A DNA stretch of 64,000 bases from Alphaproteobacteria bacterium (GCA_038318895.1 JBBQCS010000001.1:9495-73494); one strand, 5' to 3'; positions 4,076 to 30,368 are shown, counted from the stretch's first letter. Program-made: numbers and translations. Notes: generated by a model from the letters alone, not told the origin.

Positions 4076-4325
4076 AATTATAGTTCCCGAAATATCTGGT
4101 TTTTGATCTGGATCAAATATTGCCGCCGCCAGCCGCGCTACCGTCCGGTCTCGAATTTGGCAGACGAAGGACGGGTGATATGATCAGTGGTGAGTTGTTG
4201 TTTTCAATATTGGCGATCGCAGGGGTTTCAATATACTGCGCAGTCATGCTGTGGCTGACATTTACATATCATGACAAGCAAAAATTACTGCCGCATGATT
4301 GAAGAAGTGCGGGCTGTTCGCGCGG

Positions 4326-4721
4326 CTATTTCTTTTCGACGGTTTCAACCGGGTAGCCCGCAGTTTTCCATTCACCAAAACCGCCGCGCATATGCGCTAC
4401 GGGGCGAAGCCCCATGTCGTGCGCCGCGCGTCCGGCCAGCGCCGACCGTAAACCCCCAGCGCAGAAGATGATGAATTTCTTGCCCGACTGAAACCGTTCC
4501 TTGGCGTAGGGGCTGTCGGGGTCTATCCAGAATTCCAGCATGCCGCGTGGCACATGCCAGGCGCCCGGGATTGCGCCGTCACGCCACAATTCGCGTACGT
4601 CGCGAATGTCGACCAGTTCTACATTCGGATCGTCCTTGGCTTTCATCACTTCGGCCACGGTCATTGTTTCGATGACCTCTTCGGCTTCTGCGCAGAGCTG
4701 TTTGACACCTTTTGTGACCAT
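4326..4721 (-). CDS. Rhodanese-domain sulfurtransferase
   Basis: The C-terminal half has the rhodanese active-site loop (IIFCAGGLRSALAG). The start is uncertain: the ORF extends to 4769, and internal ATGs at 4721 and 4664 are both plausible. Confidence 0.55.
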   Translation of the reverse strand: MVTKGVKQLCAEAEEVIETMTVAEVMKAKDDPNVELVDIRDVRELWRDGAIPGAWHVPRGMLEFWIDPDSPYAKERFQSGKKFIIFCAGGLRSALAGRAAHDMGLRPVAHMRGGFGEWKTAGYPVETVEKK

Positions 4722-4848
4722 GACTGTTAACCCCAGATGACTGAGTGGTAGGTGGGCCATTTTACACATTACGCGGTAGAAATCTATTATTTACGGGATC
4801 TGGATTGATGCATAGGGTGCTGGCGCGGGATCGCACTGGAGAAGTCGA

Positions 4849-5901
4849 ATGAGACAAGTTGCAAAAATTGCCGGGATTAACCTGTTGGTCATAGTAATAA
4901 TATTGCTTATGGGTGAAGGGATCGCGCGCTATTCGGTTCGCTACAATCCATCTTATTATACCAGCGTCAACGCTACCGATGCGGTAATTGAGTATCCCTA
5001 TGGGATTATCAAGCGCAATTCGCAGGGGCACCCCGACGACGAGTTCGATCTAGCTGATCCGCGGCCGCGTATCGCCTATGTTGGCGATTCGGTCACCATG
5101 GGTGTCGGCGCCGGGCACGGCTATCGATTTTCCGACATTCTGGAACAACGTTTTCCACAATATCAGCACATGACGCTGGCAAGCATCGGAGACAGTTTCG
5201 ACAGTAAGAAATATATGGACGGGCGTGTGGCCGTCGCGAAAGAGCTGGGTACGTCCCAATTTATTTATTTTTATAATTTGAACGACACCTTGCCAACAGT
5301 TACCGCAGGCGCTGGCGACCCGGCAATGGTGCGAGGGTCACCATTGGCGCGGACCATCAATTTTGTAAAAATGCGGACCGAGTTTCTCCGTAACAAAAGC
5401 TATTTGTTTAATTGGGTGCGGTTCAAGGGGCGTAATGCGCTCGCCCGATTTGGCGTTGGATATCGCGGCGAGCCAAGTTATGAATTATTTCCAGAGCAGA
5501 ACGCCGCTGTGTTGGATGACGTGGCGGAGCGAATAAACTATCTTGCCGCGAAGCTGGAAAAGGAAGGTATCGCCTTTACACTGGTGCTGTTGCCCTACGA
5601 GATGCAAATTTCAAAGGACGCGGCGGATACATACTCCAGGCTTGGCATAAAATGGGACGACGGGTTTATCGCTGGCAACACCCAGGACGAAATCAGGGCG
5701 CGGCTGGATCCGGGTATTATCGTGTTCGATGCGCGCGACGCTTTCGTCCAGGCCCCGCAAGATCGTTTGAATATCAAAACCGGCCAATATTTTGTCTATA
5801 ACAAGGGCGATTCGCTGGATTGGAACCATCCAAACCGGGAAGGACACGCGCTGATCGCCAATTTTCTGCAGCGCGAGGAGCTGTTTCGCCAACTGCAATG
5901 A
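4849..5901 (+). CDS. SGNH/GDSL-type hydrolase with an N-terminal membrane anchor
   Basis: RBS GGAGAAG; TM helix INLLVIVIILLMG; GDSx block YVGDSVTMG; C-terminal catalytic D..H block (DSLDWNHPNREGHALIA). The gene is clearly lower in GC than its neighbours. Confidence 0.6.
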   Translation: MRQVAKIAGINLLVIVIILLMGEGIARYSVRYNPSYYTSVNATDAVIEYPYGIIKRNSQGHPDDEFDLADPRPRIAYVGDSVTMGVGAGHGYRFSDILEQRFPQYQHMTLASIGDSFDSKKYMDGRVAVAKELGTSQFIYFYNLNDTLPTVTAGAGDPAMVRGSPLARTINFVKMRTEFLRNKSYLFNWVRFKGRNALARFGVGYRGEPSYELFPEQNAAVLDDVAERINYLAAKLEKEGIAFTLVLLPYEMQISKDAADTYSRLGIKWDDGFIAGNTQDEIRARLDPGIIVFDARDAFVQAPQDRLNIKTGQYFVYNKGDSLDWNHPNREGHALIANFLQREELFRQLQ

Positions 5902-5952
5902 GAGCGGTTACTGCTTGTTTCAATTAGCCGGATTATGCGTTAAACACCGCGC

Positions 5953-6885
5953 ATGACATCCATATCCAGTGCTGACAGGCCCCCGCCCCAGCCGATTTCC
6001 AGGAATCTTAAAGGCATGTTGCTGATGCTCCTTTCAGGAGTGGCGGTAGCATGTATGTCGGGGGTGATCGTGCATCTGGTCAAGACCCAGCATCCGTTTG
6101 AGGTGGCGTTTTTCCGCAATATATTGGGGTTGATTTTGTTGCTGCCGCTGCTGGCTGGCAAGGGGGGTATGGCGCATTTGCGTACGGGCCGGCTGGGGCC
6201 GCTGGTGTGGCGCGGGATGCTAAGCGCCATTTCCATGATGTGCTATTTTTATGGCGTGGGGCTAATTCCGCTGGCCGAGGTAACCGCGCTGTCGTTTGTG
6301 GGGCCGCTGTTTGCAACGGTTATCGCCGTGCTTGTGCTGGGGGAACGCATTCGCCTGCGGCGCACTGTGGCTCTGGTTGTGGGTTTCTCCGGCGCATTGA
6401 TCATTCTGCGTCCCGGGTTCCATGAGATCGGCCTGGGTACACTGCTGATCTTTGGGTCAGCGGCGTCATGGTCAATCTCAATGATCATCATCAAAGTACT
6501 GACCAAGACAGAATCCGCCTTGACGCAAAGTATTTATACTCTGGTCATGCTGACCCCGATTACCGGCCTTGCGGCCTTGCCGTATTGGCAAACGCCCAAT
6601 CTGGAGGAATTTGGCTGGATGATCGTGATGGCGGCATTGGGAACCGGCGCACAACTGGCTTTTACCGAAGCCTTCAAACTGTCAGATTTGACCGCATTGT
6701 TGCCGCTTGATTTCACCAAGCTGATCTGGGCCGCCATGGTGGGGTATCTGTTTTTCGCCCAGACACCGGACATCTGGGTGTTTATTGGGGGCGCGGTGAT
6801 TTTCGCCTCGACGACCTATATTGCGTTGCGTGAAGCGCAGATTAAAAGAAAAGCTATGGCCGAAGTCCCGGAACTGCCGGTCTAA
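5953..6885 (+). CDS. DMT superfamily (EamA-like) transporter
   Basis: 310 aa with 10 predicted TM helices in two EamA-like repeats. Confidence 0.8.
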   Translation: MTSISSADRPPPQPISRNLKGMLLMLLSGVAVACMSGVIVHLVKTQHPFEVAFFRNILGLILLLPLLAGKGGMAHLRTGRLGPLVWRGMLSAISMMCYFYGVGLIPLAEVTALSFVGPLFATVIAVLVLGERIRLRRTVALVVGFSGALIILRPGFHEIGLGTLLIFGSAASWSISMIIIKVLTKTESALTQSIYTLVMLTPITGLAALPYWQTPNLEEFGWMIVMAALGTGAQLAFTEAFKLSDLTALLPLDFTKLIWAAMVGYLFFAQTPDIWVFIGGAVIFASTTYIALREAQIKRKAMAEVPELPV

Positions 6886-6966
6886 ATCGGGGTTCACTAT
6901 CGCATCATTGTAAGCTTATAAAATACCTGGATAACGCTATATAGCCTTGAGGGGAGCCGATCAGAC

Positions 6967-7689
6967 ATGCGAGATCTATTGGATTTTACCGGCAAGACGG
7001 TTGTAGTTACCGGCGGTTCCACAGGCATCGGCAACGGTATCGCACGCGCGTTTCGTGATCATGGCGCGAAGCTGATTATTACCGCCAGCCGGGAACGCGC
7101 GGCCTACGACACGGATATGGACGGCATGGATTATCATCAGGTCGATATCGCCGATGATGACGCCATGCGCGCCTTTGCCGCCCAGGTGTCCAGCCTGGAT
7201 GTGCTGGTCAACAGCGTGGGTACGGTGGTCTACAAGCGCAAGGAATTTCAGATGCCCACCTTCCGCCATGTGGTGGATGTGAACCTGAACGGGGTGATGC
7301 ATGCCTGCGTGCTGTTTCATGACAAGCTGCTGGCCACGAAGGGCAATATTGTGAATATCGCCTCCGTCGCCAGTTTTCGGCCCACCCGTGGCAATCCGGC
7401 CTATAGCGCCTCCAAGGGGGGGCTGGCCCTGCTGACCAAAAGCCTGGCAGACGCATGGGGGCCGGAAGGCATACGGGTAAATGGCCTGGCGCCGGGTTTT
7501 GTGGCCACCAAAATCACCGCCGTCAGCTATGATAATCCTGAAATCAACGAAGGCATTGTCAACACCACCCCGCTGCGCCGTTGGGGAACGCCAGAGGAAA
7601 TGGGCCAGGTGGCATTGTTTCTGGCCTCCGACATGGCGTCGTTTATGACCGGGCATACAATCCCGGTGGACGGCGGGCAGAGTCTTTAG
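6967..7689 (+). CDS. SDR-family oxidoreductase
   Basis: TGGSTGIGNGIA cofactor-binding motif; catalytic YSASK (YxxxK); RBS GAGGGGAG. Confidence 0.85.
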   Translation: MRDLLDFTGKTVVVTGGSTGIGNGIARAFRDHGAKLIITASRERAAYDTDMDGMDYHQVDIADDDAMRAFAAQVSSLDVLVNSVGTVVYKRKEFQMPTFRHVVDVNLNGVMHACVLFHDKLLATKGNIVNIASVASFRPTRGNPAYSASKGGLALLTKSLADAWGPEGIRVNGLAPGFVATKITAVSYDNPEINEGIVNTTPLRRWGTPEEMGQVALFLASDMASFMTGHTIPVDGGQSL

Positions 7690-7736
7690 CGATATTGCGA
7701 TACAAAAAGAAGCGCCCATAAGGGCGTACATACCCG

Positions 7737-9299
7737 ATGGGAGGAATGGGCGTGCACATTAATATTGGAGGATTGCTTGCAAAGCGGGCGCAGCTTAGCC
7801 CGAAACTGGAAGGGCTGTATGATGTCGCCAATAATCTGCGGCTAAGCTATGCGCAGTTTAATGCGCGGGTAGACCAGGCGGCCAACATGATTTCGGCGCT
7901 TGGGCTTAAAAAGGGAGACCGGGTCGCTCTGCTGCTAATGAACAGCATCGAATTTGTGGAAGGTTTTTTGGCCTGCGCCAAGCTCGGTTTGGTGGTGGTG
8001 CCGCTGAACTGGCGGCTGGTGCCGGATGAACTTGAATTTATCCTCAAGGACAGTGGCAGTACGGTGCTGATATTCGGCGGGGAGTTTACCGCCAATGTCG
8101 ATGAACTGCATGCGCGCGGCGCCAAAACTGATCTCACCCAATGGCTCTATGTCGGGCCGGATACGAATTGCCCGAAATATGCGCGCTCCTATTCTGCACT
8201 AACCAAAGTTGCGGCCGCCACGCCGGTAAACATCACCGCTGGTGAAGACGACATGCTCTATATCATGTATACGTCCGGCACGACGGGTCTGCCCAAGGGC
8301 GTTGTGCATACCCATAATACCAGCTTCTGGGCGATCGCCACGCTTTCCGCCACAGCGGATATGCGGTTATATGACCGCTTTTTGTTGACCCTGCCGATGT
8401 TCCATGTGGGGGCGCTGCTGCCGTTGATGGTCTGCATTTATAATGGTCTGTCTTGTGTGATGCAGCGCGCCTTTGACCCCGCAACCACCTGGAAACTGAT
8501 CGAAGCTGAGAAAATCAATGTGGCGATGCTGGTGCCCGCCATGGTGAATTTCATGTTGCAGGCGCCGGAAATCGAAACCGTCGATGCGGCGTGCCTGCGC
8601 TATTTCTTCTGTGGCGCAGCGCCCGTGCCGGACCATCTGGTTTTATCCTATGACAAGCGCGAAATTCCAGTATTGCAGATTTACGGCCTAACCGAAACCT
8701 GCGGTCCGGTGTGTCTGGTTAGCCTGGATGATTATATGGAGAAGCTAGGTTCGACCGGCAAAGCCTTCATGCACACCGATGTGCGCATTATCGATGCGGA
8801 AACCGGCAAGGATATGCCCGCTAACACACCTGGCGAACTGATCACCCGCTCCAAGCATAATATGATCGAATATTGGAATCGTGAAAAAGCCACCGCTGAA
8901 ACCCTGCGCGATGGCTGGCTTTACACTGGCGATATCGCCCGGATGGACGAGGACGGGTATGTATTTATCGCCGACCGCAGCAAGGACATGATCATTTCAG
9001 GCGGCGAGAACGTGTATCCGGCGGAGATCGAAGGTGTGTTGCTGACCCACCCCAAAATCCGCGAAGTGGCGGTGATCGGGCAGGCTTCGGCAAAATGGGG
9101 CGAATCGCCCCTGGCCGTGGTGGTGAAGGCCGATCCGTCGTTGACCGAGGAAGAGGTTCTGGGCTTCGCGAACGGGAAATTATCGCGCTTCAAACTGCCA
9201 AAGGTTGCCGTATTCATCGATGAGATACCGCGAAATCCGTCCGGCAAGGTGCTGAAACGCGTGCTGCGTGAGCAATTCCCTGATGACGCGCCGGAATAA
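7737..9299 (+). CDS. AMP-dependent acyl-CoA synthetase/ligase (long-chain fatty acid--CoA ligase type)
   Basis: AMP-binding signature YTSGTTGLPKGV, plus the TGD..GY motif and a C-terminal PRNPSGKVLK. The start may instead be the GTG at 7752, which has better SD spacing. Confidence 0.85.
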   Translation: MGGMGVHINIGGLLAKRAQLSPKLEGLYDVANNLRLSYAQFNARVDQAANMISALGLKKGDRVALLLMNSIEFVEGFLACAKLGLVVVPLNWRLVPDELEFILKDSGSTVLIFGGEFTANVDELHARGAKTDLTQWLYVGPDTNCPKYARSYSALTKVAAATPVNITAGEDDMLYIMYTSGTTGLPKGVVHTHNTSFWAIATLSATADMRLYDRFLLTLPMFHVGALLPLMVCIYNGLSCVMQRAFDPATTWKLIEAEKINVAMLVPAMVNFMLQAPEIETVDAACLRYFFCGAAPVPDHLVLSYDKREIPVLQIYGLTETCGPVCLVSLDDYMEKLGSTGKAFMHTDVRIIDAETGKDMPANTPGELITRSKHNMIEYWNREKATAETLRDGWLYTGDIARMDEDGYVFIADRSKDMIISGGENVYPAEIEGVLLTHPKIREVAVIGQASAKWGESPLAVVVKADPSLTEEEVLGFANGKLSRFKLPKVAVFIDEIPRNPSGKVLKRVLREQFPDDAPE

Positions 9300-9347
9300 G
9301 CGGGTTAAACCTATCCAATATCAATATTTTCAAATGGAGTGAAGACG

Positions 9348-9794
9348 ATGGCGACCAATGCCGAAAAAATGCAGGAAAAATTCAACAAGGAAATTGGCGA
9401 CAGCTTTATCGCCAGCAGTGACAAACAGACCGGACTAGGCGAGTATCTTGGCATCAGGCTGGTTTCGTTCAGCCCCGGCAAGCTTGTCGCTGAACTGAAA
9501 GTGAAAGACGACTTGCTGACCCCGTTCGGCAATCTGCATGGCGGCGTGATGTCGGCCTTTACCGATCATGTCCTGGGCTGTGTGTGCTATCCGCATATGA
9601 GCAAGGGCCAATGGGCGGCGACCACCGAGTTCAAGCTCAATCTGCTGGCTCCGGTGAGCAAGGGCACGGTGCGCGCGGTTGCCGAAATCATCAACATGAC
9701 CCGCACCACGGCGGTCGTGCAGATCAGCATGGACAATGATGGGCGTCCCTGTGTCGCGGCGCAAGGCACCGTGCTGATCATGGACCCGCGTTAG
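9348..9794 (+). CDS. PaaI-family hotdog thioesterase
   Basis: About 148 aa; HGG motif (NLHGGVMSAFTDHVLG) typical of PaaI/YbgC-like 4HBT-fold thioesterases. An SD (GGAG) lies 8 nt upstream of the ATG at 9348; the ORF track starts at the GTG at 9339. Confidence 0.75.
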   Translation: MATNAEKMQEKFNKEIGDSFIASSDKQTGLGEYLGIRLVSFSPGKLVAELKVKDDLLTPFGNLHGGVMSAFTDHVLGCVCYPHMSKGQWAATTEFKLNLLAPVSKGTVRAVAEIINMTRTTAVVQISMDNDGRPCVAAQGTVLIMDPR

Positions 9795-9820
9795 GGGACG
9801 TCGGCGGTAACGTAATTTCA

Positions 9821-10729
9821 GTGGACGCGGACGCACGAGACCAAACAGACGCCGCGCTGTCGCGGCATCTGTTTGCACTGCCGGAGGGCGGGCTGTCCTA
9901 TCTGGACTTTGGCGGCCCGGCCAACGCGCGGCGCGTGGTGATGTCCAACGCCAATGGTTTTAACGCCTATACCTATCGGCAGTTGCTGTCGCCGCTGTGT
10001 GATCGTTTGCGCGTTCAGGCCATAGACGCGCGCGGCCACGGCTTCAGCAACGCCGCCGCCGATCCGGAAATGCCACTGTCCTGGAATAATTTCCGCGATG
10101 ATTTGATCCGCTTTCTGGAGGCGTTGGGAGAGCCCGCATTGCTCGTTGGCCATTCACTTGGCGCGACGACGAGCCTTTTGCTGGCGGAGGCGCGCCCGGA
10201 TCTGGTGACCGGCGTTCTGGCGGTGGAACCGGTTATTCAGCCCTATCTGCGGTCCTGGGGGATGCGCGTCAAACGCTGGCTGCATCTGCCGCATCAGGCG
10301 AATGGTCTGGTCGACGGGGCGGCCAAACGGCGGGCCATATTCCCGGACCGTGATGCAGTGTTCGCTTCCTACAAGGGGCGCGGCGCGTTCAGATCGTGGC
10401 CGGAACAGGTGCTGCGCGATTATATCACCGGTGGTACGCGCGACCGCGCGGATGGGCAGATAGAGCTTGCCTGCGCGCCAGCGTGGGAGGCGCATGTGTT
10501 CCGTTCCAGTGGCACCTATATCTGGGACCGGCTGGCGCGGATCAAGCGGCCCATTACCATCATCCATGGCAATGTGTTTTCAACCTGTTCGGCCCCGGTA
10601 ACCCAACGCATGGCGCGATTGCACCCATCGGCGAAGATCACGCTTGTGGATGGCGCCAGTCATTTTCTGCCGATGGAGTTTCCCGATATTGTGCGCGAAA
10701 ATATACTGCGCATGAGCACGCTGGAATAG
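9821..10729 (+). CDS. Alpha/beta hydrolase
   Basis: GHSLGA nucleophile elbow. GTG start; the N-terminal extent is uncertain. Confidence 0.65.
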   Translation: MDADARDQTDAALSRHLFALPEGGLSYLDFGGPANARRVVMSNANGFNAYTYRQLLSPLCDRLRVQAIDARGHGFSNAAADPEMPLSWNNFRDDLIRFLEALGEPALLVGHSLGATTSLLLAEARPDLVTGVLAVEPVIQPYLRSWGMRVKRWLHLPHQANGLVDGAAKRRAIFPDRDAVFASYKGRGAFRSWPEQVLRDYITGGTRDRADGQIELACAPAWEAHVFRSSGTYIWDRLARIKRPITIIHGNVFSTCSAPVTQRMARLHPSAKITLVDGASHFLPMEFPDIVRENILRMSTLE

Positions 10730-10732: not shown

Positions 10733-12094
10733 CTAATAAGCGAACTCCTCGTAAGCGGGAAGCACACTGCCCTTCCACGGGCCGTGATAACGATCCAGCA
10801 TGATCTCCGCCGGGCTGCGGCCTGATGCCGCCGTTTCAAGCAGTACATCAAGAAAATGCTGTTCATCCTGGCCTGAACCCCCGATACGGGCGCGGGCTTT
10901 CAAACCGGCAGAGGCAATTTTCAGTACTTCAAACGCGACATCCTGCAATGCGCCGCCACGAAAAGGTGTGTGCAGCGCCAGTTTCGGCACACCATCGCGC
11001 AATGCCTGACGTTCCTGCGTGGTCCAGTCCTTTACCAGATCCCACGCCGCATCCAGTGCGCCCTGATCGTACAGCAGACCGACCCACAAAGCGGGCAGGG
11101 CGCACAGGGATCGCCACGGGCCGCCATCGGCGCCTCGCATTTCCAGGAATTTTTTCAGCCGTACTTCTGGAAACAGTGTCGTGAGATGATCAGCCCAGTC
11201 GCCCATGGTTGGCTTTTCACCGGGCAGCGCGGGCAAACGTCCGTCCAGAAAATCGCGGAACGATTGACCGGAAGCATCAATATATTTCCCGTCGCGATAG
11301 ACGAAATACATCGGCACATCCAGTGCGTACTGAACATAACGCTCAAACCCGAAACCGCCGTCAAACACAAAGGGGACCATTCCCGAACGATCCGGATCGG
11401 TGTCCGTCCATACATGGCTGCGGAAGCTCAGATGCCCGTTTGGTTTTCCTTCGGTAAACGGCGAATTGGCGAACAGCGCCGTTGCAAGGGGTTGCAGCGC
11501 CAGAGAGACGCGGAATTTACGCACCATGTCGGCTTCGGATGCGTAATCCAGATTAACTTGCACCGTACACGAACGGTACATCATATCAACGCCGTGATCA
11601 CCGCGTTTGGGCATGTAGTTTGTCATAATGCCATAGCGCCCCTTGGGCATTACCGGAATTTCCGCACGAGTCCAGTTCGGCGTAAAGCCCAGGCCCAGAA
11701 AGCCGATGCCAAGTCCGGTCGCCACTTCGCGCACTTGCTTAAGGTGGGTGTTTACCTCGTCACAGGTCTGATGCAGGGTTTCCAGCGGTGCACCGGACAA
11801 TTCAAACTGCCCGCCCGGTTCCAGACTTATGGCGCCGCCATCCAGCGTGAGTGCGATTATATTTCCCTTTTCCATGACCGGCTGCCAGCCAAAACGCTGC
11901 ATGCCTTCCAGAAGCGCGCGCACTCCTGCCGGGCCTTCATATGGCAGGGTGCTGTGGTCAGTCAGCCGGAACCCGAATTTTTCGTGCTCGGTGCCAATGC
12001 GCCACTGATCTTTGGGCTTGTTGCCGGAAGCAAGATAGTCGACAAGATCTGATTGGTGCTCGATCTGGCCGCTCGCTGATTGTGGTCCCGACAT
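10733..12094 (-). CDS. gshA: Glutamate--cysteine ligase (plant/alphaproteobacterial GCS2 type)
   Basis: 454 aa from the ATG at 12094, which has the SD AGGAAAG 7 nt upstream. The N-terminus [42 protein letters not shown] matches GCS2-family ligases. The ORF track extends to 12172, but that start lacks an RBS. Confidence 0.85.
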
Positions 12095-12244
12095 GGTGCG
12101 TCTTTCCTGGATGTGTTGTTGGCGGCACTCTACACTGGCAGAACGGTCAGTGCTACCATACGCATTCCTCATCGTTCCCCCGTGAACACCCTACTGAGAG
12201 GTTGCATCTAGGAACGCTCCGCCCAAATATGATATGGCGTCTTC

Positions 12245-13159
12245 ATGATAGAGTTTACGGGGAAAAAACAGGCAGGCGCAACTCAGGATGCGCCGGGTAA
12301 TTGGGTAGACTGGTATGCTCCTGCCCGTGTACGGCCTTATCTGCGGCTGGCGCGGCTGGACAGGCCTATCGGCACATGGTTGCTGCTATGGCCATGCTTG
12401 TGGTCGATCGCGCTGGCCTCGGGCGGCGTATGGCTGATGATCGTGTTTGCGCTGGGCGCGGTGGTGATGCGCGGTGCTGGCTGCACCTTTAATGACATTG
12501 TTGACCGTGACCTGGATACGAAAGTAACCCGTACCGCGAACCGTCCATTGCCCAGCGCCGCGGTCAGTGTACCGGCCGCATGGATGTTCCTGGCGTTGCA
12601 ATGCAGCGCAGGTTTGCTGATTTTGCTGTCGCTTAATTCCTTCGCCATTGGCGTCGGGGTGGCGTCCCTGCTGCCGGTGGCGATCTATCCGTTCATGAAA
12701 CGGGTCACTTATTGGCCGCAACTGTTTTTAGGTGTGGCGTTCAATTGGGGCGCGCTGCTGGGCTGGGCCGCGGTAACCGGGGGTCTGGCGGCGCCTGCGA
12801 TCTTGCTCTATCTCGGCGGGATATTCTGGACCCTGGGCTATGACACCATCTATGCCCATCAGGACAAGGACGACGATGCCCTGATCGGAGTCAAATCGAC
12901 GGCGCTGAAATTTGGCGCGCGCAGCAAACCCGCCATTGCCGCATTTTATCTGGGTGCCTTAGGCTTGTTCGCATTGGCGGGATGGGCCGCAGCACCGGGG
13001 TGGGGCTTCTGGCCGCTATTGGGGCTGGCGGGGATGCATCTGGCCTGGCAGGTGATTTCCCTGCAAAGTGATAATCCGGACAATTGCTTACGCCTGTTCC
13101 GAGCCAACCGGGATTTCGGCGCGTTGCTGTTTGTGGCGATTCTGGCAGGCGGGATATAG
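12245..13159 (+). CDS. ubiA: 4-hydroxybenzoate polyprenyltransferase
   Basis: UbiA signature GCTFNDIVDRDLDTKVTRTANRPL with a second Asp-rich motif; about 9 TM helices. Confidence 0.85.
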   Translation: MIEFTGKKQAGATQDAPGNWVDWYAPARVRPYLRLARLDRPIGTWLLLWPCLWSIALASGGVWLMIVFALGAVVMRGAGCTFNDIVDRDLDTKVTRTANRPLPSAAVSVPAAWMFLALQCSAGLLILLSLNSFAIGVGVASLLPVAIYPFMKRVTYWPQLFLGVAFNWGALLGWAAVTGGLAAPAILLYLGGIFWTLGYDTIYAHQDKDDDALIGVKSTALKFGARSKPAIAAFYLGALGLFALAGWAAAPGWGFWPLLGLAGMHLAWQVISLQSDNPDNCLRLFRANRDFGALLFVAILAGGI

Positions 13160-13192
13160 GTAAAATAAAGTAATTATGTGCTATAAAGGGCC

Positions 13193-14155
13193 ATGATTAC
13201 GCCATCAGACTATCTCTCTGCGGAAGAAATTTCGCGCCTGCGCGCCAAATCGCAATGGCGCTCCGTATGGATGGTCGCCCACGTCTGGGGGGTGGTGTTT
13301 GGCGCCATGGCGCTGTTCGCTCTCTGGCCCAACCCCCTGACGTTTATTCTGGCGGTCATGCTGATCGGCGCACGCCAGTTGGGCATGGCGATTTTGGTGC
13401 ATGATGCGGCACACGGCGCGCTGTTTCACAACCGCGCGCTCAATGACCGGGTAAGCAACTGGCTGCTGGGCTACCCGGTGCTGACCGAGACCAAAGCCTA
13501 TCGCGTCTATCATCTTGAGCATCACAAATATGTGCAGCAGCCGAATGATCCGGACATTGGCCTGTCGGCGCCATTTCCCATCACTAAATCCAGTTTCCGC
13601 CGCAAGCTGTGGCGTGACATCACCGGGCGTACCGGGTTTAAGCAACGCGGGGCGCAGATCCGGGCGGCCATCGGTGCGCCGGACATGCCGCTGGCTTCGC
13701 GTATTGCACTGTTCCGCCGCAAGATGGGGGGCATGCTGATCACCAATCTGGTCTTGCTGGGTGGGTTGAGCGCGATTGGATACTGGTATCTGTATCCCCT
13801 GCTATGGGTGTTGCCGCTGCTGACCTATTACCAGGTGATCACGCGCGTTCGTAATATCGCTGAACACGCGGTGGTTCCCGATAATGACGATGATTTTCGC
13901 ACCGCGCGCACCACGCGCGCGAACTGGCTGATGCGTGTTTTCCTGGCGCCCTATTTCGTCAATTATCATCTGGAACATCATCTGATGATGTTCGTTCCCT
14001 GTTACCGGTTGCCGCAGGTGCGTGAATTATTTCTGGCCAAGGGGCATGGCGCGCGCATGGAGTATAAGCCGGATTACCGCTCCGTTCTGGCCCTGGCTAT
14101 TTCGAAACCGGAACCGGCGGCCGATGCAAACGCCACGGGCCGGACCGCCGCCTGA
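13193..14155 (+). CDS. Membrane di-iron fatty-acid-desaturase-family oxygenase (CrtW/Des-like)
   Basis: Three His boxes: HDAAHG, HLEHHKY and YHLEHHLMMFVPCYRLP. The last resembles the C-terminal box of CrtW/DEGS-type enzymes. Four TM helices. Confidence 0.65.
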   Translation: MITPSDYLSAEEISRLRAKSQWRSVWMVAHVWGVVFGAMALFALWPNPLTFILAVMLIGARQLGMAILVHDAAHGALFHNRALNDRVSNWLLGYPVLTETKAYRVYHLEHHKYVQQPNDPDIGLSAPFPITKSSFRRKLWRDITGRTGFKQRGAQIRAAIGAPDMPLASRIALFRRKMGGMLITNLVLLGGLSAIGYWYLYPLLWVLPLLTYYQVITRVRNIAEHAVVPDNDDDFRTARTTRANWLMRVFLAPYFVNYHLEHHLMMFVPCYRLPQVRELFLAKGHGARMEYKPDYRSVLALAISKPEPAADANATGRTAA

Positions 14156-14814
14156 TGGAAACTGTGCTAGGCGATCCGGCGCAATTCATCCTGGATCATA
14201 CTGTACTGACCCAAACGCCGCTGGTTCCTGAAATCAGCCTGTATGTGGCCAGTGAAATGCTCCCGATCTGGCAGATGACGGAAGACGAAATGCGCACAGT
14301 TGGCCTGCCGCCGCCGTTCTGGGCTTTTGCCTGGGCGGGCGGTCAGGCGCTGGCGCGATACATTCTGGACAACCCGGAACTGGTCGCGGGCAAACGGGTG
14401 CTGGACTTTGGCGCGGGTTCAGGTCTTGCGGGAATTGCCGCGGCGCTGGCAGGTGCGGCACAGGTGAGCGCGGCGGAAATAGATCCGATCGCAATCATCG
14501 CGATGGATCTGAATGCGCGCGCCAACACTGTGACCCTTATCGCGCTAGAAGGCGATATTGTCGGCGCGGCGGGGGCTGACTGGGATGTGGTGCTGGCCGC
14601 CGATGTTTGTTATGAGGGGCCCGCCTCCAAACGCATTGTCGCGTGGCTGGATGATCTGGCGCGTACAGGTGTGACGGTGTTGATGGGCGATCCGGGGCGC
14701 ACATATTTTCCGAAATCGGGACATGAAAAACTGATCAGCTATGCGGTTAAAACCACGACCGAACTGGAAGACACGGATTTGCGCAATACTAGTGTATGGC
14801 GCGTGACGGGATGA
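14155..14814 (+). CDS. Class I SAM-dependent methyltransferase (PrmA/METTL20-like protein-lysine methyltransferase fold)
   Basis: The ATG overlaps the desaturase TGA by 1 nt (TGATG). Motif I is VLDFGAGSGLAGIAAALAGA and a DIDP motif is present. The upstream PFWAFAWAGGQALARYIL block recalls METTL20/EtfB-lysine methyltransferase homologues. Confidence 0.6.
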   Translation: METVLGDPAQFILDHTVLTQTPLVPEISLYVASEMLPIWQMTEDEMRTVGLPPPFWAFAWAGGQALARYILDNPELVAGKRVLDFGAGSGLAGIAAALAGAAQVSAAEIDPIAIIAMDLNARANTVTLIALEGDIVGAAGADWDVVLAADVCYEGPASKRIVAWLDDLARTGVTVLMGDPGRTYFPKSGHEKLISYAVKTTTELEDTDLRNTSVWRVTG

Positions 14815-14823
14815 GTGCGCGCC

Positions 14824-16350
14824 ATGGCATATAAATCCCTGCGCGACTTTGTGGCCTTGCTGGAGCGCGAGGGAAAACTGCTGCGCGTGAAAGAGCCGGT
14901 TTCCACCGAGCTGGAAATGACGGAAATTCAGACCCGGCTGCTGGCGGAGGGCGGCCCTGCGGTGCTGTTTGAAAAACCGGTCATCGCCGGGGGCGGCATC
15001 AGTCCGATACCGGTGCTGGTGAATTTGTTCGGCACGGTGGAGCGTGTCGCCATGGCGGTGACGATGGGCAACGTTACGCGGCGTACCGGTCTTGATTTGC
15101 GCGAGGTCGGCGAAACATTGGCGTTCCTGCGTCAGCCGCAACCGCCCGATGGCTTGCGCGAGGCGGTGGGCATGGCGCCATTACTGCGTACGGTGATGAA
15201 TATGCGCCCCAAGACTGTGCGTAGCGCGCCGGTGCAGGAAGTGGTCTTGACTGGCGATGAGATTGATCTGGCGCGCCTGCCGATCCAGACCTGCTGGCCA
15301 AATGAACCCGCACCCTTGATCACCTGGCCGCTGGTGGTGACAAAAGGTCCCGGCGAGAGCGCGGAAGACAGTTATAATCTGGGCATTTACCGTATGCAGG
15401 TGCTGGGGCGTAACCGTACGCTGATGCGCTGGCTGCGGCACAGGGGCGGGGCGCAACATCATGCGCGCTGGGGTGCGGCGCGGCCCGAACCGCTTCCCGC
15501 CGCGGTGGTTATCGGGTCCGATCCCGGCACCATACTGGCGGCGGTGACGCCGGTTCCCGACACGCTGAGCGAATATCAGTTCGCCGGGCTGCTGCGCGGC
15601 GAACGGGTGGAACTGGTGGACTGCAAAACCGTGCCGCTCAAGGTTCCCGCGCAGGCGGAGATCGTGCTGGAAGGTCATGTGTCGCTGACCGATTATGGTG
15701 ATGAAGGCCCATATGGCGATCACACCGGCTATTATAATTCGGTCGAGCAATTTCCGGTGTTCACCCTCAGCGCCATCACCATGCGCCGCGATCCGCTATA
15801 TCTCTCCACTTTCACGGGCCGCCCGCCGGATGAACCCAGCGTTCTGGGCGAGGCACTGAACGAAGTGTTTGTGCCCCTGTTGCAGCAGCAATTTCCCGAG
15901 ATCACGGATTTCTGGCTGCCGCCGGAAGGCTGCTCCTATCGCATCGCGGTGGTGTCGATCCGCAAGGCCTATCCAGGCCACGCAAAGCGGGTGATGATGG
16001 GCATCTGGTCTTATCTGCGCCAGTTCATGTATACAAAATGGGTCATTGTCGTGGACGACGATATCAATATTCGGGACTGGAAAGAGGTGATGTGGGCGAT
16101 TTCCACCCGCATGGACCCGGTGCGCGATATCACCCAGATGCAGAATACGCCGATCGATTATCTGGATTTCGCCAGTCCGGAAAGCGGCCTTGGCGGCAAG
16201 ATTGGTCTGGACGCCACCAATAAATGGCCGCCGGAAACCAAACGGGAATGGGGCACGCAAATCCGCATGACCGACGAGGTGATCGAAACCGTCACTCAAA
16301 AATGGTCGCAATTGGGACTGCCGGGGTCCGGCAAACCGATCTGGAAATAG
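14824..16350 (+). CDS. ubiD: UbiD-family decarboxylase (4-hydroxy-3-polyprenylbenzoate decarboxylase)
   Basis: [22 protein letters not shown] aligns with the E. coli UbiD N-terminus; about 509 aa. The stop of the upstream methyltransferase abuts the start (a GTG at 14815 is also possible). Confidence 0.85.
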
Positions 16351-16415: not shown

Positions 16416-16856
16416 ATGGAAGAAGTTGCAGCGCAAATAACGGAAACGGTGGCGCAGTTGAGTAGCGGCATTATCCCGATATCTACCCTGTATATCGGTC
16501 TCAATGCGCTACTGAATTTAATTCTTGCCATTCTGGTCGTGCGGGTCCGGGTGAAGACGGAAACCCAAATTGGCGATGGCGGCAACGAAGACATGATAAA
16601 GGCGATGCGTGCACACGGTAATAATGTGGAATATGTCCCCATTACCCTGCTGGTGCTGATTGCAGTGGAAATGGCTGCGGCGCCGGTATGGCTGGTACAT
16701 GCGCTTGGCGCCGGGTTGACGGTTGCCCGCGCCGGGCATGCGTTTGGTATTTCAAGCAGTACAGGGCGATCCGTTGGCCGGTTTGCGGGCACCATGCTGG
16801 GCTGGATCGTATTATTGGTGGGCAGCGTTGCCTGCATTTACTACGGGCTTAATTGA
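16416..16856 (+). CDS. MAPEG-family membrane protein (MGST-like glutathione transferase family)
   Basis: 146 aa with 4 TM helices and the MAPEG signature R-A-H-x-N-x-x-E-Y (MRAHGNNVEYVPI). Confidence 0.7.
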   Translation: MEEVAAQITETVAQLSSGIIPISTLYIGLNALLNLILAILVVRVRVKTETQIGDGGNEDMIKAMRAHGNNVEYVPITLLVLIAVEMAAAPVWLVHALGAGLTVARAGHAFGISSSTGRSVGRFAGTMLGWIVLLVGSVACIYYGLN

Positions 16857-16868: not shown

Positions 16869-16900
16869 CCAGACGGACCTTAGGGGCCGTCTGGATTTTT
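16869..16900 (+). terminator. Rho-independent terminator after the MAPEG gene
   Basis: 8-bp stem CCAGACGG / CCGTCTGG around a 10-nt loop, followed by ATTTTT. Confidence 0.55.
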
Positions 16901-16916
16901 GCAGTTAGGAGTACTC

Positions 16917-18287
16917 ATGTCACTGGAAAGCGCCACAGAGCACAAATATGATGAAGCCGCGTTACGCAACCTGGCCGAGGATGTGATCGCACGGGTGCGG
17001 GCGGCCGGGGCGGACGCCGCCGATGTATTGATGGTTGCCGGGGCGTCGCTGTCGGCATCGTGCCGGATGGGAGAGGTTGAAGAGGTTGAGAGGTCCGACG
17101 GCCAGGATTTTGGCCTGCGCGCCTTTGTTGGCAAACGTCAGGCCATTGTGTCTTCCAGCGATTTCAGCAAAACCTCTCTGGATCAGCTGATTACCCGGGT
17201 TGTCGCCATGGCGAGACTTGCTCCCGAAGATGCGTATTGCGGTCTGGCGGAGCGCGATCTGCTGGCCACCACTTTCCCGGATCTGGATATATGTGATCCC
17301 ACCGAGCTGGAAATGCCCGCAATGATTGACGCGGCAAAGCGGGCCGAGAATGCTGCCCGTGGTGTTACCGGTATCACCAATTCCGAAGGTGCGGGAGCCA
17401 GTTGCAGCCACAGCCGCGTGGTGCTGGCCACCAGTGAAGGTTTTTCCGGCAGTTACGCCACGTCGTCCTTTGGCATGTCCTGTTCAGTCCTGGCGGGCGA
17501 GGGCACCGAGATGGAGCGTGACTATGAATATTCGTCCGTGCGCCACTACGAGGATTTGACGGCGCCGGAAGAAATTGGTCTGGTTGCCGCCCAGCGCACC
17601 CTCAGTCGCCTTAATCCGCGTAAAGTGAAAACCCAGCAGGTGCCGGTAATTTATGCGCCGCGCATATCGAACAGTCTTTTGGGGCATTTGGCCGGCTCCA
17701 TATCCGGCGCGGCGGTGGCGCGCGGCACAAGTTTTCTGAAAGACCGGCTGGGAAAGGCGATTTTCGCCAACGGTGTCAGCGTTGTCGATGATCCGCACCG
17801 CCCGCGTGGTTTGCGCTCAAAGCCATTTGATGGTGAAGGCGTGGCGAACGGACGCACCATAGTGATCGAGGACGGGGTTCTGACCGGCTGGCTGCTGGAC
17901 ACTGCGTCGGCCAAACAGTTGGGGTTGCGCAGTAGGGGCCATGCCGCGCGCGGCAGCGGTTCTGCGCCCTCACCCTCCACGACTAATTTTTATATGCAGG
18001 CCGGAAAAACACCGGCGGTTGGTATGATCAGTTCACTGAGTAAAGGTCTGTTCATAACCGAATTGATTGGCATGGGCGTAAACCCGGTGACCGGCGACTA
18101 CAGCCGGGGGGCCACTGGCTTCTGGATTGAAAATGGCCAGTTCACCCACGCTGTCAGCGAGATTACGGTGGCGGGCAATTTGCTGGAAATGTTCATGCAT
18201 CTGACACCGGGGGACGACCTGGAATTCCGGTATGGCATGAATGCGCCCACGATTATGATCGAAGGGATGACGGTCGCAGGTGAGTGA
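16917..18287 (+). CDS. pmbA: TldD/PmbA-family metalloprotease (PmbA/TldE)
   Basis: The ATG at 16917 follows AGGAG with a 6-nt spacer. About 456 aa, with a Gly-rich PmbA C-terminus (GDYSRGATGFWIENG). Confidence 0.8.
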   Translation: MSLESATEHKYDEAALRNLAEDVIARVRAAGADAADVLMVAGASLSASCRMGEVEEVERSDGQDFGLRAFVGKRQAIVSSSDFSKTSLDQLITRVVAMARLAPEDAYCGLAERDLLATTFPDLDICDPTELEMPAMIDAAKRAENAARGVTGITNSEGAGASCSHSRVVLATSEGFSGSYATSSFGMSCSVLAGEGTEMERDYEYSSVRHYEDLTAPEEIGLVAAQRTLSRLNPRKVKTQQVPVIYAPRISNSLLGHLAGSISGAAVARGTSFLKDRLGKAIFANGVSVVDDPHRPRGLRSKPFDGEGVANGRTIVIEDGVLTGWLLDTASAKQLGLRSRGHAARGSGSAPSPSTTNFYMQAGKTPAVGMISSLSKGLFITELIGMGVNPVTGDYSRGATGFWIENGQFTHAVSEITVAGNLLEMFMHLTPGDDLEFRYGMNAPTIMIEGMTVAGE

Positions 18288-19065
18288 CGCGCACGGCGAA
18301 AAACATCACCTTGTTGCGGTACATGCCGCGCGTGAGGCGGGTGCGCTGGCCATGACGTATTTCGGCGCCGATTACGCGAAGTGGGAAAAAAGCAGAGATA
18401 ATCCGGTAACCGAGGCGGACTTTGCGGTTGACCTGCTGTTACGCCAACGTCTGCAGGCCTTCGGCTCCGGCTATGGCTGGCTTTCGGAGGAAAGCGTGGA
18501 CGACAACAGCCGCCGAACCGCGCGCCGGGTCTGGGTTGTTGATCCAATCGACGGCACCCGCGCCTTCATCCGTGGTCAACCGCATTTCGCCGTTTGTATC
18601 GCCTTGTTGGAAGACGGCAGGCCAATTTCCGCCGTGATATTTAATCCGGCGACGGATGAGCTGTTTGAAGCGTCGGAGGGCGGGCCGGCATTGTTGAACG
18701 GTGTGCGAGTTCAGGTAAGCGCGAAAGACAAGCTGCAGGATGCACGCATGCTGGCGTCAAAAGGCGTGTTTCAGCACGAACGCTGGACCAATCCGTGGCC
18801 CGCGATGCATGTGGAATCACGCAATTCCATTGCCTATCAGGTGGCCCTGACGGCGTCGGGACATTTCGACGGCTGTATGAACCTGTGGGGCGCTTATGAT
18901 TGGGATCTGGCGGCTGCGGATTTGATTTTGCGTTCCGCGGGCGGGCATATCACGGACCATACGGGTGCGGCCTTGCGTTTCAATCAGGACACCCTGCGGC
19001 ACCCGAGTATCGTTGCAGCAAACCCGGCGCTGCACGGTTTATTGCTGGAACGGTTGCAAGTATGA
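18280..19065 (+). CDS. Inositol monophosphatase-family phosphatase
   Basis: IMPase motifs WVVDPIDGTRAFIRG and WDLAA; the GTG start overlaps the pmbA end by 8 nt. Confidence 0.8.
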   Translation: MSDAHGEKHHLVAVHAAREAGALAMTYFGADYAKWEKSRDNPVTEADFAVDLLLRQRLQAFGSGYGWLSEESVDDNSRRTARRVWVVDPIDGTRAFIRGQPHFAVCIALLEDGRPISAVIFNPATDELFEASEGGPALLNGVRVQVSAKDKLQDARMLASKGVFQHERWTNPWPAMHVESRNSIAYQVALTASGHFDGCMNLWGAYDWDLAAADLILRSAGGHITDHTGAALRFNQDTLRHPSIVAANPALHGLLLERLQV

Positions 19066-21040: not shown

Positions 21041-22165
21041 ATGTCTGGCGGTGTATTTCCCGGCGCTGCGATCACGCTTACGGCGGCGCTAAACCACACG
21101 GTTTTTGTGCTTGGAGTTTTTCTTGCTTCGGCGGCAATGACCTGGGGCATGATCCGTTTCAATATTTCCGATGTGCCGAACGAGCGTTCATCGCATCAGC
21201 GTCCGACACCAAAAAGTGGTGGCGTAGCGATAGCGGCGGCTTTTTTTGCAGGCCTAGCGGGACTTTATCTGCTTAGCGACATGGCACGGCTGCCCGCGGG
21301 GCAATTCGCCATGTTTCTTGTCACCGCTGGCGTCATGTTTGCCGCAGCCTTGATTGATGATGTGATCGGACTACGCGCGCTGGTGAAGTTTTCCGTGCAA
21401 TTCTTTAGCGCGTTGCTGTTCAGCCTGTTCGTGGCGCATATTGATACTTTGGCATTTCCCGTGTTTGGCGACGTTGCGTTTGGCGCCCTTGGTCATGGGA
21501 TCACCGTGCTGTGGATCATATTTTTCATGAACGCCTTTAATTTCATGGATGGCATTAACGGCCTTGCGGGCGGTGGCGCGCTGATAGCCTCGGTCTTCCT
21601 GGCAGGCATCGCGTTTTTTTCCGGGGCGCATTTTGTGTATCTCAGTGCGCTGTGCCTATTCGGCGCTGTGCTTGGGTTTTTTGTATTCAATTTCCCCCAT
21701 GGCCGCATCTTCATGGGGGATACGGGCAGCCAGATCATTGGTTTCGTTCTGGCGGGGCTGGCGGTGATTGGCGCGCGCGCGGACATTGGCCAGGTATCGA
21801 TCATGGTGGTGCCGGTGTTATTTGCATGTTTCCAGTTCGATGTGCTGGCGACACTGTGTTACCGCTTTGCGCGGGGCAAGCAGCTTGGCCAGGCGCATCG
21901 CGAGCATCTGTATCAGATCAGCAACCGTCTTGGGTTTTCACATCAGCGGGTCAGCGCAATCTATTTCGGGCTGTTTGTGATGAACGGGGTATTTGGAGTT
22001 CTGATCCAGGCCGCCGAACCTGCGGCACGGTTACCGTTACTGCTGGGCTGTGTGCTGCTGCATGCGCCGCTGGCGATAATGGTATATGGCGCGGGCCTGC
22101 GTCAGGGGATTGCCGATTTATCCGGCCCAGTCAAAATCCAGCCCCAGGTCCAGACACGCGCTTGA
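21041..22165 (+). CDS. Polyprenyl-phosphate N-acetylhexosamine-1-phosphate transferase (WecA/WbpL/MraY family, GT4)
   Basis: Multi-TM protein with DDVIGL, NAFNFMDGINGLAGG and MGDTGSQ motifs. It starts 2 nt after the upstream stop. Confidence 0.75.
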   Translation: MSGGVFPGAAITLTAALNHTVFVLGVFLASAAMTWGMIRFNISDVPNERSSHQRPTPKSGGVAIAAAFFAGLAGLYLLSDMARLPAGQFAMFLVTAGVMFAAALIDDVIGLRALVKFSVQFFSALLFSLFVAHIDTLAFPVFGDVAFGALGHGITVLWIIFFMNAFNFMDGINGLAGGGALIASVFLAGIAFFSGAHFVYLSALCLFGAVLGFFVFNFPHGRIFMGDTGSQIIGFVLAGLAVIGARADIGQVSIMVVPVLFACFQFDVLATLCYRFARGKQLGQAHREHLYQISNRLGFSHQRVSAIYFGLFVMNGVFGVLIQAAEPAARLPLLLGCVLLHAPLAIMVYGAGLRQGIADLSGPVKIQPQVQTRA

Positions 22166-22984
22166 ATGGGTCAACGCGCCAACGGAAATCAAGTCCACGC
22201 CCGTGGCCGCAATGCCCGCCACCGTGTCCAGATTAACGTTACCGGATGCTTCCAATATTGCGCGTCCATTATTAATACGCACTGCATCGCGCAGCATGTC
22301 GTTGGACATATTATCCAGCAGGATAATATCGGGTTTTTCCAGCAGCGCTTCTTCAAGCTGCGCCAGGGTATCCACCTCGACCTCAATCTTCACCATATGC
22401 CCCGCATGCGCGCGCGCGCGGGCAATGGCAGTGCGCACACCACCGGCAACACCGATGTGATTGTCCTTGATCAGCACGGCGTCATCCAGCCCGAAACGGT
22501 GATTGGCGCCGCCGCCCGCGCGCACCGCATATTTTTGTAACGCACGCATGCCCGGAATGGTTTTACGGGTGCAGCAAATGCGCGCCTTGTGGCCTCCAGT
22601 TGCCGCCACCATGCGGGCCGTGGCGGATGCTATCCCGGAAAGATGGCCCAGAAAATTGAGCGCCGTGCGTTCCGCGGTCAGCGCCGCACGCGCGGGACCG
22701 GAAATAATTGCAATCGTGTCCCCGGGGCAAAGCGCAGCGCCATCCTTGCAGAATTTTTCCACCTGCAAACGCGCGTCCACCTGTTTGAAAACCGCTTCGG
22801 CAATGTCGATCCCGGCCAGACACCCGGCCTGACGGCTAGCCAGTGTGACGCGCACCATAGTCGTATCCGGGATGATGCTGTCCGACGTAATGTCGCCGGC
22901 AGCTCCCAGATCCTCGGCCAGCGCAGTATGCACCAGTGGCAGGTAAAGCAGGGGGGAAAGGGGGATCAGATCATGTGCGCTCAT
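22118..22984 (-). CDS. nadC: Nicotinate-nucleotide pyrophosphorylase (quinolinate phosphoribosyltransferase)
   Basis: 288 aa of typical NadC/ModD-fold sequence; it is the last gene of the nadABC operon. Confidence 0.9.
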   Translation of the reverse strand: MSAHDLIPLSPLLYLPLVHTALAEDLGAAGDITSDSIIPDTTMVRVTLASRQAGCLAGIDIAEAVFKQVDARLQVEKFCKDGAALCPGDTIAIISGPARAALTAERTALNFLGHLSGIASATARMVAATGGHKARICCTRKTIPGMRALQKYAVRAGGGANHRFGLDDAVLIKDNHIGVAGGVRTAIARARAHAGHMVKIEVEVDTLAQLEEALLEKPDIILLDNMSNDMLRDAVRINNGRAILEASGNVNLDTVAGIAATGVDLISVGALTHSSACLDLGLDFDWAG

Positions 22985-24570: not shown

Positions 24571-24581
24571 CGTTGTACCTG

Positions 24582-25694: not shown

Positions 25695-25742
25695 GGCTTT
25701 CTCCTGCGCTTTCCCTGTTTCCGGGCGCCCTTCTTATTTATA

Positions 25743-25763: not shown

Positions 25764-25851
25764 GCTTAAAAAAACACCGGCTCTTCTTCCGGTCTTCAAT
25801 ATGCTATATGTGAGCATTTAGGCGAGTCAACAACATTATTTCAAAAATATT

Positions 25852-30358: not shown

Positions 30359-30368
30359 CGGATACGGC

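Follow-up and report, generated by a model that had tools for sequence, protein, structure and literature searches.

A ubiA-to-ubiD gene row in an alphaproteobacterial genome, with a membrane di-iron oxygenase and a METTL20-type methyltransferase, considered within a conserved syntenic block

Within a stretch of 64,000 nucleotides from the genome of an Alphaproteobacteria bacterium (GCA_038318895.1, JBBQCS010000001.1:9495-73494; we call this whole stretch the window and give all coordinates as positions in it), four open reading frames (ORFs), all on the plus strand, occupy positions 12245 to 16350. The row begins with ubiA and ends with ubiD, and between them lie genes for a membrane di-iron oxygenase and a methyltransferase. 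A preliminary description had read it as a ubiquinone (UQ) operon with two inserted genes, the first of which would act on a polyprenyl-benzoate or quinone intermediate. The comparison with other genomes presented here leads to a different view, in which the oxygenase is probably not a new ubiquinone-making enzyme.

The first gene, ubiA (12245-13159), codes for a 4-hydroxybenzoate polyprenyltransferase of 304 amino acids (TIGR01474, 365 bits against a membership cut-off of 275.45; PF01040, 203 bits). It is followed by an AT-rich spacer of 33 nt (13160-13192) carrying the sequence TGcTATAAA at 13179-13187, a putative promoter of a leaderless transcript. Next come the oxygenase (13193-14155; 320 amino acids), a member of the FA_desaturase superfamily (PF00487, 132 bits) and of a GntB-like subfamily, and the methyltransferase (14155-14814; 219 amino acids), a homolog of METTL20, the lysine methyltransferase of the electron transfer flavoprotein β subunit (ETFβ), identified by BLASTP against human ETFBKMT and by PF10294 and PF06325. 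The last gene, ubiD, encodes a protein of the 4-hydroxy-3-polyprenylbenzoate decarboxylase family with the domains UbiD_N, UbiD and UbiD_C. It runs from 14815 to 16350 and gives 511 amino acids from the GTG at 14815, with an alternative ATG start at 14824; its score with TIGR00148 is 512 bits (cut-off 245), and with the equivalog NF008175 it reaches 717 bits, just under the cut-off of 788. All four genes had been considered to be coupled. This is true of the last three, since the TGATG overlap of oxygenase and methyltransferase is present at 14153-14157 and the stop codon of the methyltransferase (TGA, 14812-14814) is followed directly by the GTG of ubiD, but less so of ubiA and the oxygenase. 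Their junction is the weakest link of the row because of the AT-rich spacer, with TGcTATAAA only 5 nt before the ATG. A scan for consensus promoters and terminators between 12000 and 17000 gave matches no more frequent than in shuffled sequence, and neither the Rfam nor the tRNA scan gave any match.

A scan of one genome per species recovered 80 oxygenase loci, with identities of 50 to 89%, onto which the window proteins were mapped by tblastn. ubiA was found upstream, on the same strand and within 4 kb, in 32 of them, belonging to Parvibaculaceae, Rhizomicrobium, Tepidicaulis, Rhodobiaceae and several metagenome-assembled genomes (MAGs); a separately fetched Parvularculales MAG has the same linkage. 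Wherever it occurs, the linkage lies inside a longer array, in which gshA and rsmE point to the left and are followed, pointing to the right, by ubiA, the oxygenase, the methyltransferase, in some cases ubiD, and finally a MAPEG-family gene, pmbA and an inositol-monophosphatase gene, with other genes interspersed. The order gshA, rsmE, ubiA, oxygenase, with these orientations, is kept in three orders. In the window, the divergent left end of the block is formed by gshA, a plant-type glutamate-cysteine ligase (10733-12172, minus strand; TIGR01436, 720 bits) that occupies the same place in related loci. The right end contains, all on the plus strand and identified through Pfam, the MAPEG-family gene (16416-16856) and pmbA (16899-18287), in the same order as in related loci, and the inositol-monophosphatase-family gene (18280-19065; PF00459, Inositol_P), which has a counterpart at the equivalent place in relatives. 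rsmE is absent from the window, where gshA and ubiA are divergent and only 72 nt apart (12173-12244); it lies between these two genes in every relative examined (L001, L003, L005 and L092 were compared). The MAPEG gene, which follows ubiD in the window, is found between ubiA and the oxygenase in Rhizomicrobium-type loci.

In function, the genes of this array are unrelated to one another, and, because the block holds gshA, rsmE, pmbA and suhB as well, synteny does not imply common function here. The block is also often interrupted. The distance between ubiA and the oxygenase varies from 33 nt to about 2.7 kb, and the inserted genes are MAPEG, SnoaL, toxin-antitoxin or TetR genes. Further downstream, amino-acid permease genes have been inserted before ubiD in related loci. 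On the contig that carries the methyltransferase of Parvibaculum lavamentivorans DS-1, nine unrelated genes lie between the oxygenase and the methyltransferase, and ubiD comes only after two more. No ubiA could be found within flanks of up to 10 kb in 35 loci longer than 9 kb. One close relative (locus L008, oxygenase 82% identical) keeps the oxygenase-methyltransferase-ubiD row (L008 1-2404) and has a gene for a NAD-dependent epimerase upstream in place of ubiA. The position within a "ubiquinone operon", which had been offered as a clue to function, does not support the proposed role, since the linkage is limited to one conserved block of unrelated genes that is often broken up. The variation of neighbors in other genomes, which the preliminary description itself had named as evidence against its proposal, is what the cross-genome synteny revealed. 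More generally, the gene order conserved around ubiA in alphaproteobacteria includes unrelated housekeeping genes, and an operon reading needs genomes in which this order is broken.

In about 55 of 92 loci, the gene directly before the oxygenase codes for a regulator, most often on the same strand, which makes it the commonest neighbor. There are several kinds. Inside the ubiA block, about 20 loci of the Parvibaculaceae type have a TetR_C_24-type regulator, and in one of them (L092) the genes for TetR, oxygenase and methyltransferase overlap one another. A TetR_C_12-type regulator is present in 24 Rhizobiales loci, and a PaaX-like regulator in 10 loci, on the opposite strand in a clade of MAGs labeled delta proteobacterium, Binataceae or Acidiferrales. 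A common ancestor of the two TetR types was considered and rejected, as their similarity is confined to the helix-turn-helix region (E = 0.09). Because they are unrelated outside that region, the regulators must have been recruited more than once. Regulators of the TetR or PaaX type are often acyl-CoA-sensing, and the DesT-DesCB system of Pseudomonas is a repressor-controlled aerobic desaturase system. The layout is alike here, with a TetR repressor gene coupled to a membrane gene of the desaturase family and, in Bradyrhizobium, fab genes nearby. However, the oxygenase scores only 20 to 34 bits with DesB, there is no DesC-like oxidoreductase, and the regulators are of the TetR_C_12, TetR_C_24 or PaaX-like types.

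The loci that have no such regulator show another pattern. In the 45 nt upstream of the start codon of 36 of them, a TAnnnT hexamer ending exactly 6 nt ahead of the ATG occurs in 12, and one ending 5 to 7 nt ahead of it in 17, against an average count of 0.3 at any other offset (binomial P of about 1e-16, for loci that are not fully independent). A Shine-Dalgarno sequence precedes the oxygenase ATG in the regulator-coupled loci, and none does so in the regulator-less loci with this −10-like box. These patterns suggest that the oxygenase of the regulator-less loci may have its own promoter and a leaderless mRNA. In the window, the extended −10-like TGcTATAAA ends 5 nt before the ATG at 13193 and no Shine-Dalgarno is visible; in the sister locus L006, TATACT is placed at 6 nt before the ATG, and L008 has a perfect extended −10 (TGcTATAAT) 30 nt before it. 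Reyranella loci have TTGACA-N17-CAGCCT-N6-ATG in front of the oxygenase. If the −10 box, a pattern that is consistent across lineages, is indeed a promoter, the oxygenase could be transcribed independently of ubiA. The methyltransferase and ubiD of the window probably share a transcript with the oxygenase, judging from how closely the three genes are joined. The independent gain, in different lineages, of either a dedicated repressor or a putative private promoter of the leaderless type marks the oxygenase as a conditionally used function.

Outside the ubiA block the surroundings are quite different. In Bradyrhizobium and other Xanthobacteraceae and Beijerinckiaceae, the TetR gene overlaps the start of the oxygenase by 4 nt, and fabD, fabG, acpP and fabF follow. 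A Rhodobacterales genome has the order oxygenase, Rce1-like gene, accD, folC. In the MAG clade labeled delta proteobacterium, Binataceae or Acidiferrales, the PaaX-like regulator is divergent and two family-III CoA-transferases are found downstream of the oxygenase; the loci of this clade (L012, L014, L019, L023, L035, L036 and L073) have oxygenases with 53 to 57% identity. Should these carriers have no ubiquinone, a UQ-specific role of the oxygenase would thereby be excluded. The neighbors in the remaining loci are unrelated. A neighbor-joining tree placed the ubiA-linked and the fab-linked oxygenases in one radiation, with the Rhizobiales clade nested beside the ubiA-linked Rhizomicrobium group, and each Bradyrhizobium genome was represented only once in the set of 80 loci. 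For these two reasons, the oxygenases were treated as orthologs.

Within Pfam, PF00487 was the sole match of the oxygenase (131.9 bits against a gathering threshold of 29.7, residues 48-282). Three His boxes are present, HDAAH (70-74), HLEHH (107-111) and HLEHH (259-263), with an extra histidine, H225, in a RNIAEH motif. Nine histidines (H70/H74, H107/H110/H111, H259/H262/H263 and H225) are invariant in an alignment of 30 sequences with identities down to 36%, and again in 26 more distant sequences. In the same 30-sequence alignment, Arg61 is invariant as well, and Gln62, Asp119-Pro-Asp121 and a number of arginines vary little or not at all. A search of solved structures by sequence gave no match. 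The structural model matched a FADS-domain protein (8xks_K, score 21.7), FtAlkB (8sbb, 13.0) and SCD1 (4ymk, 7.8), and Foldseek returned the same first two. From this model, the protein is predicted to have the FA_desaturase membrane fold with two helical hairpins, like the solved members of the superfamily. It differs from these FADS/AlkB-type enzymes in that sequence identity is just 14 to 17% and that no rubredoxin, cytochrome b5 or reductase gene is fused or adjacent to the oxygenase.

Among curated models, the only substantial match was GntB (NF041365), with 116.9 bits over a full-length alignment, which does not reach the cut-off of 380. The same NCBIfam profile was found in every clade tested, orthologs of other clades (Bradyrhizobium, Rhodobacterales and a Parvibaculaceae-type contig) scoring 111 to 129 bits. 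The models for CrtW (26.8 bits, cut-off 350) and CrtR (27.9 bits, cut-off 475) gave partial alignments far under their cut-offs, and the acyl-CoA desaturase DesB (NF052549, cut-off 500) gave 19.8 bits, with orthologs up to 33.7. The label "CrtW-family", which had been applied to the oxygenase, is hence too specific, GntB being the nearest curated model. A firm clustering with acyl-lipid desaturases, which had also been named beforehand as unfavorable to a UQ role, was not found. A match of 33.5 bits to human DEGS1 around His boxes 1 and 2 came from an unverified query sequence and is not relied on. No ubi or coq model of NCBIfam matched the oxygenase, so the statement that this three-His-box membrane protein is unlike any known UQ hydroxylase holds. 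The family is large, with 333 representative clusters (at 50% identity) at E < 1e-30 and 2455 at E < 1e-10, and its members appear in the databases as "fatty acid desaturase family protein". What emerges is a widespread, mostly alphaproteobacterial family of GntB-like membrane di-iron oxygenases that has been labeled merely as fatty acid desaturase. In the literature we found no link between this family and ubiquinone. A Δ9 desaturase has been described for Bradyrhizobium TAL1000 and Ensifer meliloti (Paulucci et al., cited in PMC8718912), a lead that may or may not concern the same gene.

The methyltransferase had been described as METTL20-like and of the protein-lysine methyltransferase type, and this was borne out. 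Its identity to human ETFBKMT is 37% over 217 residues (BLASTP, 126 bits, E = 2e-40), that is, nearly the whole length of the bacterial protein. An exact look-up of the human query returned [quoted passage not shown] and so confirmed it. Both proteins share the blocks WAxxWxGGQALxRYxLDNP, GxGxG, DxxY and GDPGR; the hallmarks of methyltransferase family 16 are thus present, with VLDFGAGSG as the S-adenosylmethionine-binding GxGxG motif and D150-V-C-Y153 as DxxY, aligned with the human motifs. The Pfam matches are PF10294 (Methyltransf_16, 36.8 bits against a cut-off of 21), PF06325 (PrmA, 40.7 bits) and also MTS, and among solved structures METTL21B (33 bits) and PrmA (26 bits) score far under ETFBKMT. 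JGI names relatives of this protein "predicted nicotinamide N-methylase". For the METTL20 homologs of Agrobacterium tumefaciens and Rhizobium etli, methylation of ETFβ has been reported on two lysines beside its recognition loop, the residues that the human enzyme also modifies (PMC9006661). The window protein differs from the human one in having no mitochondrial presequence and in that its gene is translationally coupled to those of an oxygenase and UbiD, an arrangement that this review does not mention. Being a bacterial METTL20 ortholog by all appearances, it would most likely methylate lysines of ETFβ, possibly also of L7/L12, and not the quinone ring; its homology speaks against a function in the O- or C-methylation of quinones. 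Both inserted genes thus belong to known superfamilies: the methyltransferase to a characterized family, and the oxygenase to an uncharacterized GntB-related subfamily.

The reading that we favor, and to which we give somewhat better than an even chance, is that of a tightened block holding an autonomous, conditionally expressed oxygenase that probably acts on a lipid and a METTL20-type methyltransferase. The four-gene row would be an old syntenic block of alphaproteobacteria that became more compact in this lineage, where rsmE, the TetR gene and MAPEG went missing or moved, rather than an operon for ubiquinone synthesis that has gained two pathway genes. In most genomes the oxygenase would be preceded by a ligand-type repressor of its own, be it one of the two unrelated TetR types or the PaaX-like one, and away from ubiA it appears to keep its regulator and no ubi gene. 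The enzyme itself would be an O2-dependent, four-helix membrane di-iron protein of the FA_desaturase/AlkB type. Most likely its substrate is an acyl chain or lipid embedded in the membrane, which it would desaturate or hydroxylate with electrons from a general cellular donor. We propose this substrate less firmly than the rest, on account of the membrane fold, the fab or acc neighbors in two independent lineages, and the TetR and PaaX-type regulators. ubiA and ubiD would keep their ordinary roles.

Several observations weigh against this reading. Conserved linkage to ubiA extends over three or more orders whose UbiA proteins are only 51 to 64% identical. In the clade of the window, the oxygenase, the methyltransferase and ubiD are contiguous and translationally coupled, which makes their co-expression with ubiD likely here. 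The hexamer in the window (TATAAA) ends in A, misses the TAnnnT pattern and is weaker than those of the relatives. The oxygenase groups with no characterized acyl-lipid desaturase (the 20 to 34 bits of DesB), and GntB, the curated family nearest to it, uses free L-arginine, so that a lipid substrate rests on context (fab and acc neighbors, membrane location) and not on homology. The neighbor-joining tree was built rapidly from distances and carries no support values, and our view of the hydroxylase genes of the source genome spans only the 64-kb window and 4.9 kb to its left.

A possible but rather unlikely alternative takes the kinship with GntB at face value. The oxygenase would be GntB/RtxC-like, its substrate a polar molecule of the amino-acid type, whether as a free compound or as an aminolipid head group (e.g., in ornithine lipid), and the repressor would sense that molecule. 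GntB is the transmembrane L-arginine γ-hydroxylase of guanitoxin biosynthesis, with γ-hydroxy-L-arginine as its product (PMC10367076); it belongs to the same superfamily, has a similar length (about 310 amino acids) and remains the best curated match in every clade, with 111 to 129 bits over the full length against no more than 34 for CrtW, CrtR or DesB. The many conserved Arg, Asp and Gln residues around the His boxes and the two amino-acid permease genes in the block of Rhizomicrobium-type loci point in the same direction. However, a score of 117 bits, less than one third of the cut-off, is that of a distant relative and not of an equivalent enzyme, and the oxygenase is a conserved chromosomal gene of alphaproteobacteria that has no gnt-type neighborhood and belongs to no toxin cluster. 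There is no recurrent partner gene of an amino-acid pathway (no pyridoxal phosphate enzyme, no non-ribosomal peptide synthetase), the permeases are absent from most loci, and the metabolic neighbors that do recur are those of fatty-acid synthesis.

A role in UQ biosynthesis, as first proposed, now looks very unlikely. The oxygenase would be a new enzyme of the pathway, carrying out the ring hydroxylation of 3-polyprenyl-4-hydroxybenzoate (or of a later intermediate) or a modification of the tail, and the methyltransferase could methylate the new hydroxyl. The location of the gene between those for prenyltransferase and decarboxylase would then reflect the stage at which the enzyme works. Several orders retain the succession of ubiA, oxygenase, methyltransferase and ubiD, the last three genes being tightly coupled in the clade of the window, and this succession mirrors the order of steps in eukaryotes, which in yeast is prenylation, C5-hydroxylation, O-methylation and decarboxylation. 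In addition, the invariant Arg61 and the near-invariant Gln62, in the helix before His box 1, could bind a carboxylate. If such a role were real, it would mean a new class of UQ hydroxylase in the lineage ancestral to mitochondria, but the evidence points away from it. About half of the genomes have the ortholog away from ubi genes, with its own repressor and near fab, acc or variable genes; the close relative L008 has no ubiA upstream; the block holds its unrelated genes, gshA, rsmE, pmbA and suhB; and the methyltransferase resembles a protein-lysine methyltransferase whose bacterial homologs act on ETFβ. Control by a repressor and a private promoter would also be odd for a constitutive cofactor pathway.

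Neither do the known hydroxylases leave an obvious vacancy. UbiH/I/F/L/M are flavin monooxygenases, Coq7 is a soluble di-iron four-helix bundle and UbiU/V are U32 proteins, all of a fold and family unrelated to the oxygenase. Like Coq7, the oxygenase has a di-iron center and depends on O2, and its gene lies in the neighborhood of ubiA and ubiD. In Rhodospirillum rubrum, all three hydroxylations are accounted for by UbiL (C-1 and C-5) and Coq7 (C-6) (PMC5069965). Both UbiL and Coq7 are found in P. lavamentivorans DS-1 and in Parvularcula bermudensis (Pelosi et al., PMC5069965, Table S1), and the ubiA-linked oxygenase is found in genomes of the Parvibaculum and Parvularcula lineages, so there is no missing step that calls for a new enzyme there. 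The complete hydroxylase set that had been raised as a point against a UQ role is therefore established for these two relatives, but not for the genome of the window. No Coq7-like or UbiH/L/M-like gene was found by Pfam and NCBIfam scans of most of the long ORFs (about 55) of the 64-kb window or in the 4.9 kb to its left, a negative of little weight. All in all, action on a polyprenyl-benzoate or quinone intermediate is not supported, in view of the unrelated genes of the block, the regulators that travel with the orthologs, the locus without ubiA and the hydroxylases of the relatives.

Still less probable is that the oxygenase and the methyltransferase form a functional pair, e.g., an enzyme that is ETF-dependent or controlled through the methylation of ETFβ, an idea that would explain their frequent translational coupling. 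The methyltransferase starts between −11 and +141 nt from the oxygenase stop codon in 21 loci, including the TetR-headed L092, with an 11-nt overlap, and its homology to METTL20 would suit such a partnership. However, the arrangement is seen only inside the ubiA block, and outside it no locus has the methyltransferase beside the oxygenase. Even within the block, the Parvibaculum methyltransferase is 9.6 kb away and coupled to ribF, and in Rhizomicrobium a gene on the opposite strand separates the two. The least probable of the readings considered is that the row is a remnant of an ancestral UQ module in mitochondrial step order, whose oxygenase hydroxylates 3-polyprenyl-4-hydroxybenzoate before UbiD acts, Arg61 and Gln62 holding the carboxylate; it would make the enzyme a fourth structural class of UQ ring hydroxylase and the fab- and repressor-linked copies later re-uses.

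The remainder of the window contains other gene groups. Directly upstream of gshA and ubiA (2010-10729) is a series of acyl-CoA or lipid-type genes that related loci do not share. Its members code for a thiolase-like protein, two α/β hydrolases, a GDSL-like lipase, an EamA transporter, a short-chain dehydrogenase/reductase, a hotdog thioesterase and a long-chain acyl-CoA ligase, the last scoring 517 bits with NF004837 (cut-off 476). On a matching contig, a zf-ChsH2 gene was called just before the thiolase-like gene. We considered the acyl-CoA ligase and 4HBT thioesterase cluster as a supply of 4-hydroxybenzoate and dropped the idea, since the best matches are a generic long-chain acyl-CoA ligase and a hotdog thioesterase and the cluster is absent from related loci. 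The ORF at 40792-41601 was rejected as UbiG (59 bits against a cut-off of 103) and is a class I methyltransferase, weakly UbiG-like; it adjoins genes for a CDP-alcohol phosphatidyltransferase and a diacylglycerol-kinase-like protein.

On the minus strand, nadC, nadB and nadA stand in a row at 22118-26856, followed by an NrtR-type regulator with a winged-helix domain, in what looks like a self-contained unit for the de novo synthesis of NAD. At 29324-32972, an ORF of the ELM1 (mitochondrial-fission) family (357 bits) overlaps by 190 nt the longest reading of an ORF for a 2-oxoglutarate-Fe(II) oxygenase, after which comes a 659-residue ORF without any Pfam match. Four glycosyltransferase genes and a histidine phosphatase gene are found at 42417-55267, and then a 934-residue ABC-type protein and a LonC-like protease of 824 residues. 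Finally, a tightly packed module of the oxalate type (58080-62254) consists of a formyl-CoA-transferase-like gene, an oxalyl-CoA decarboxylase that scores 564 bits with NF006721 (cut-off 557) and a major facilitator superfamily transporter.

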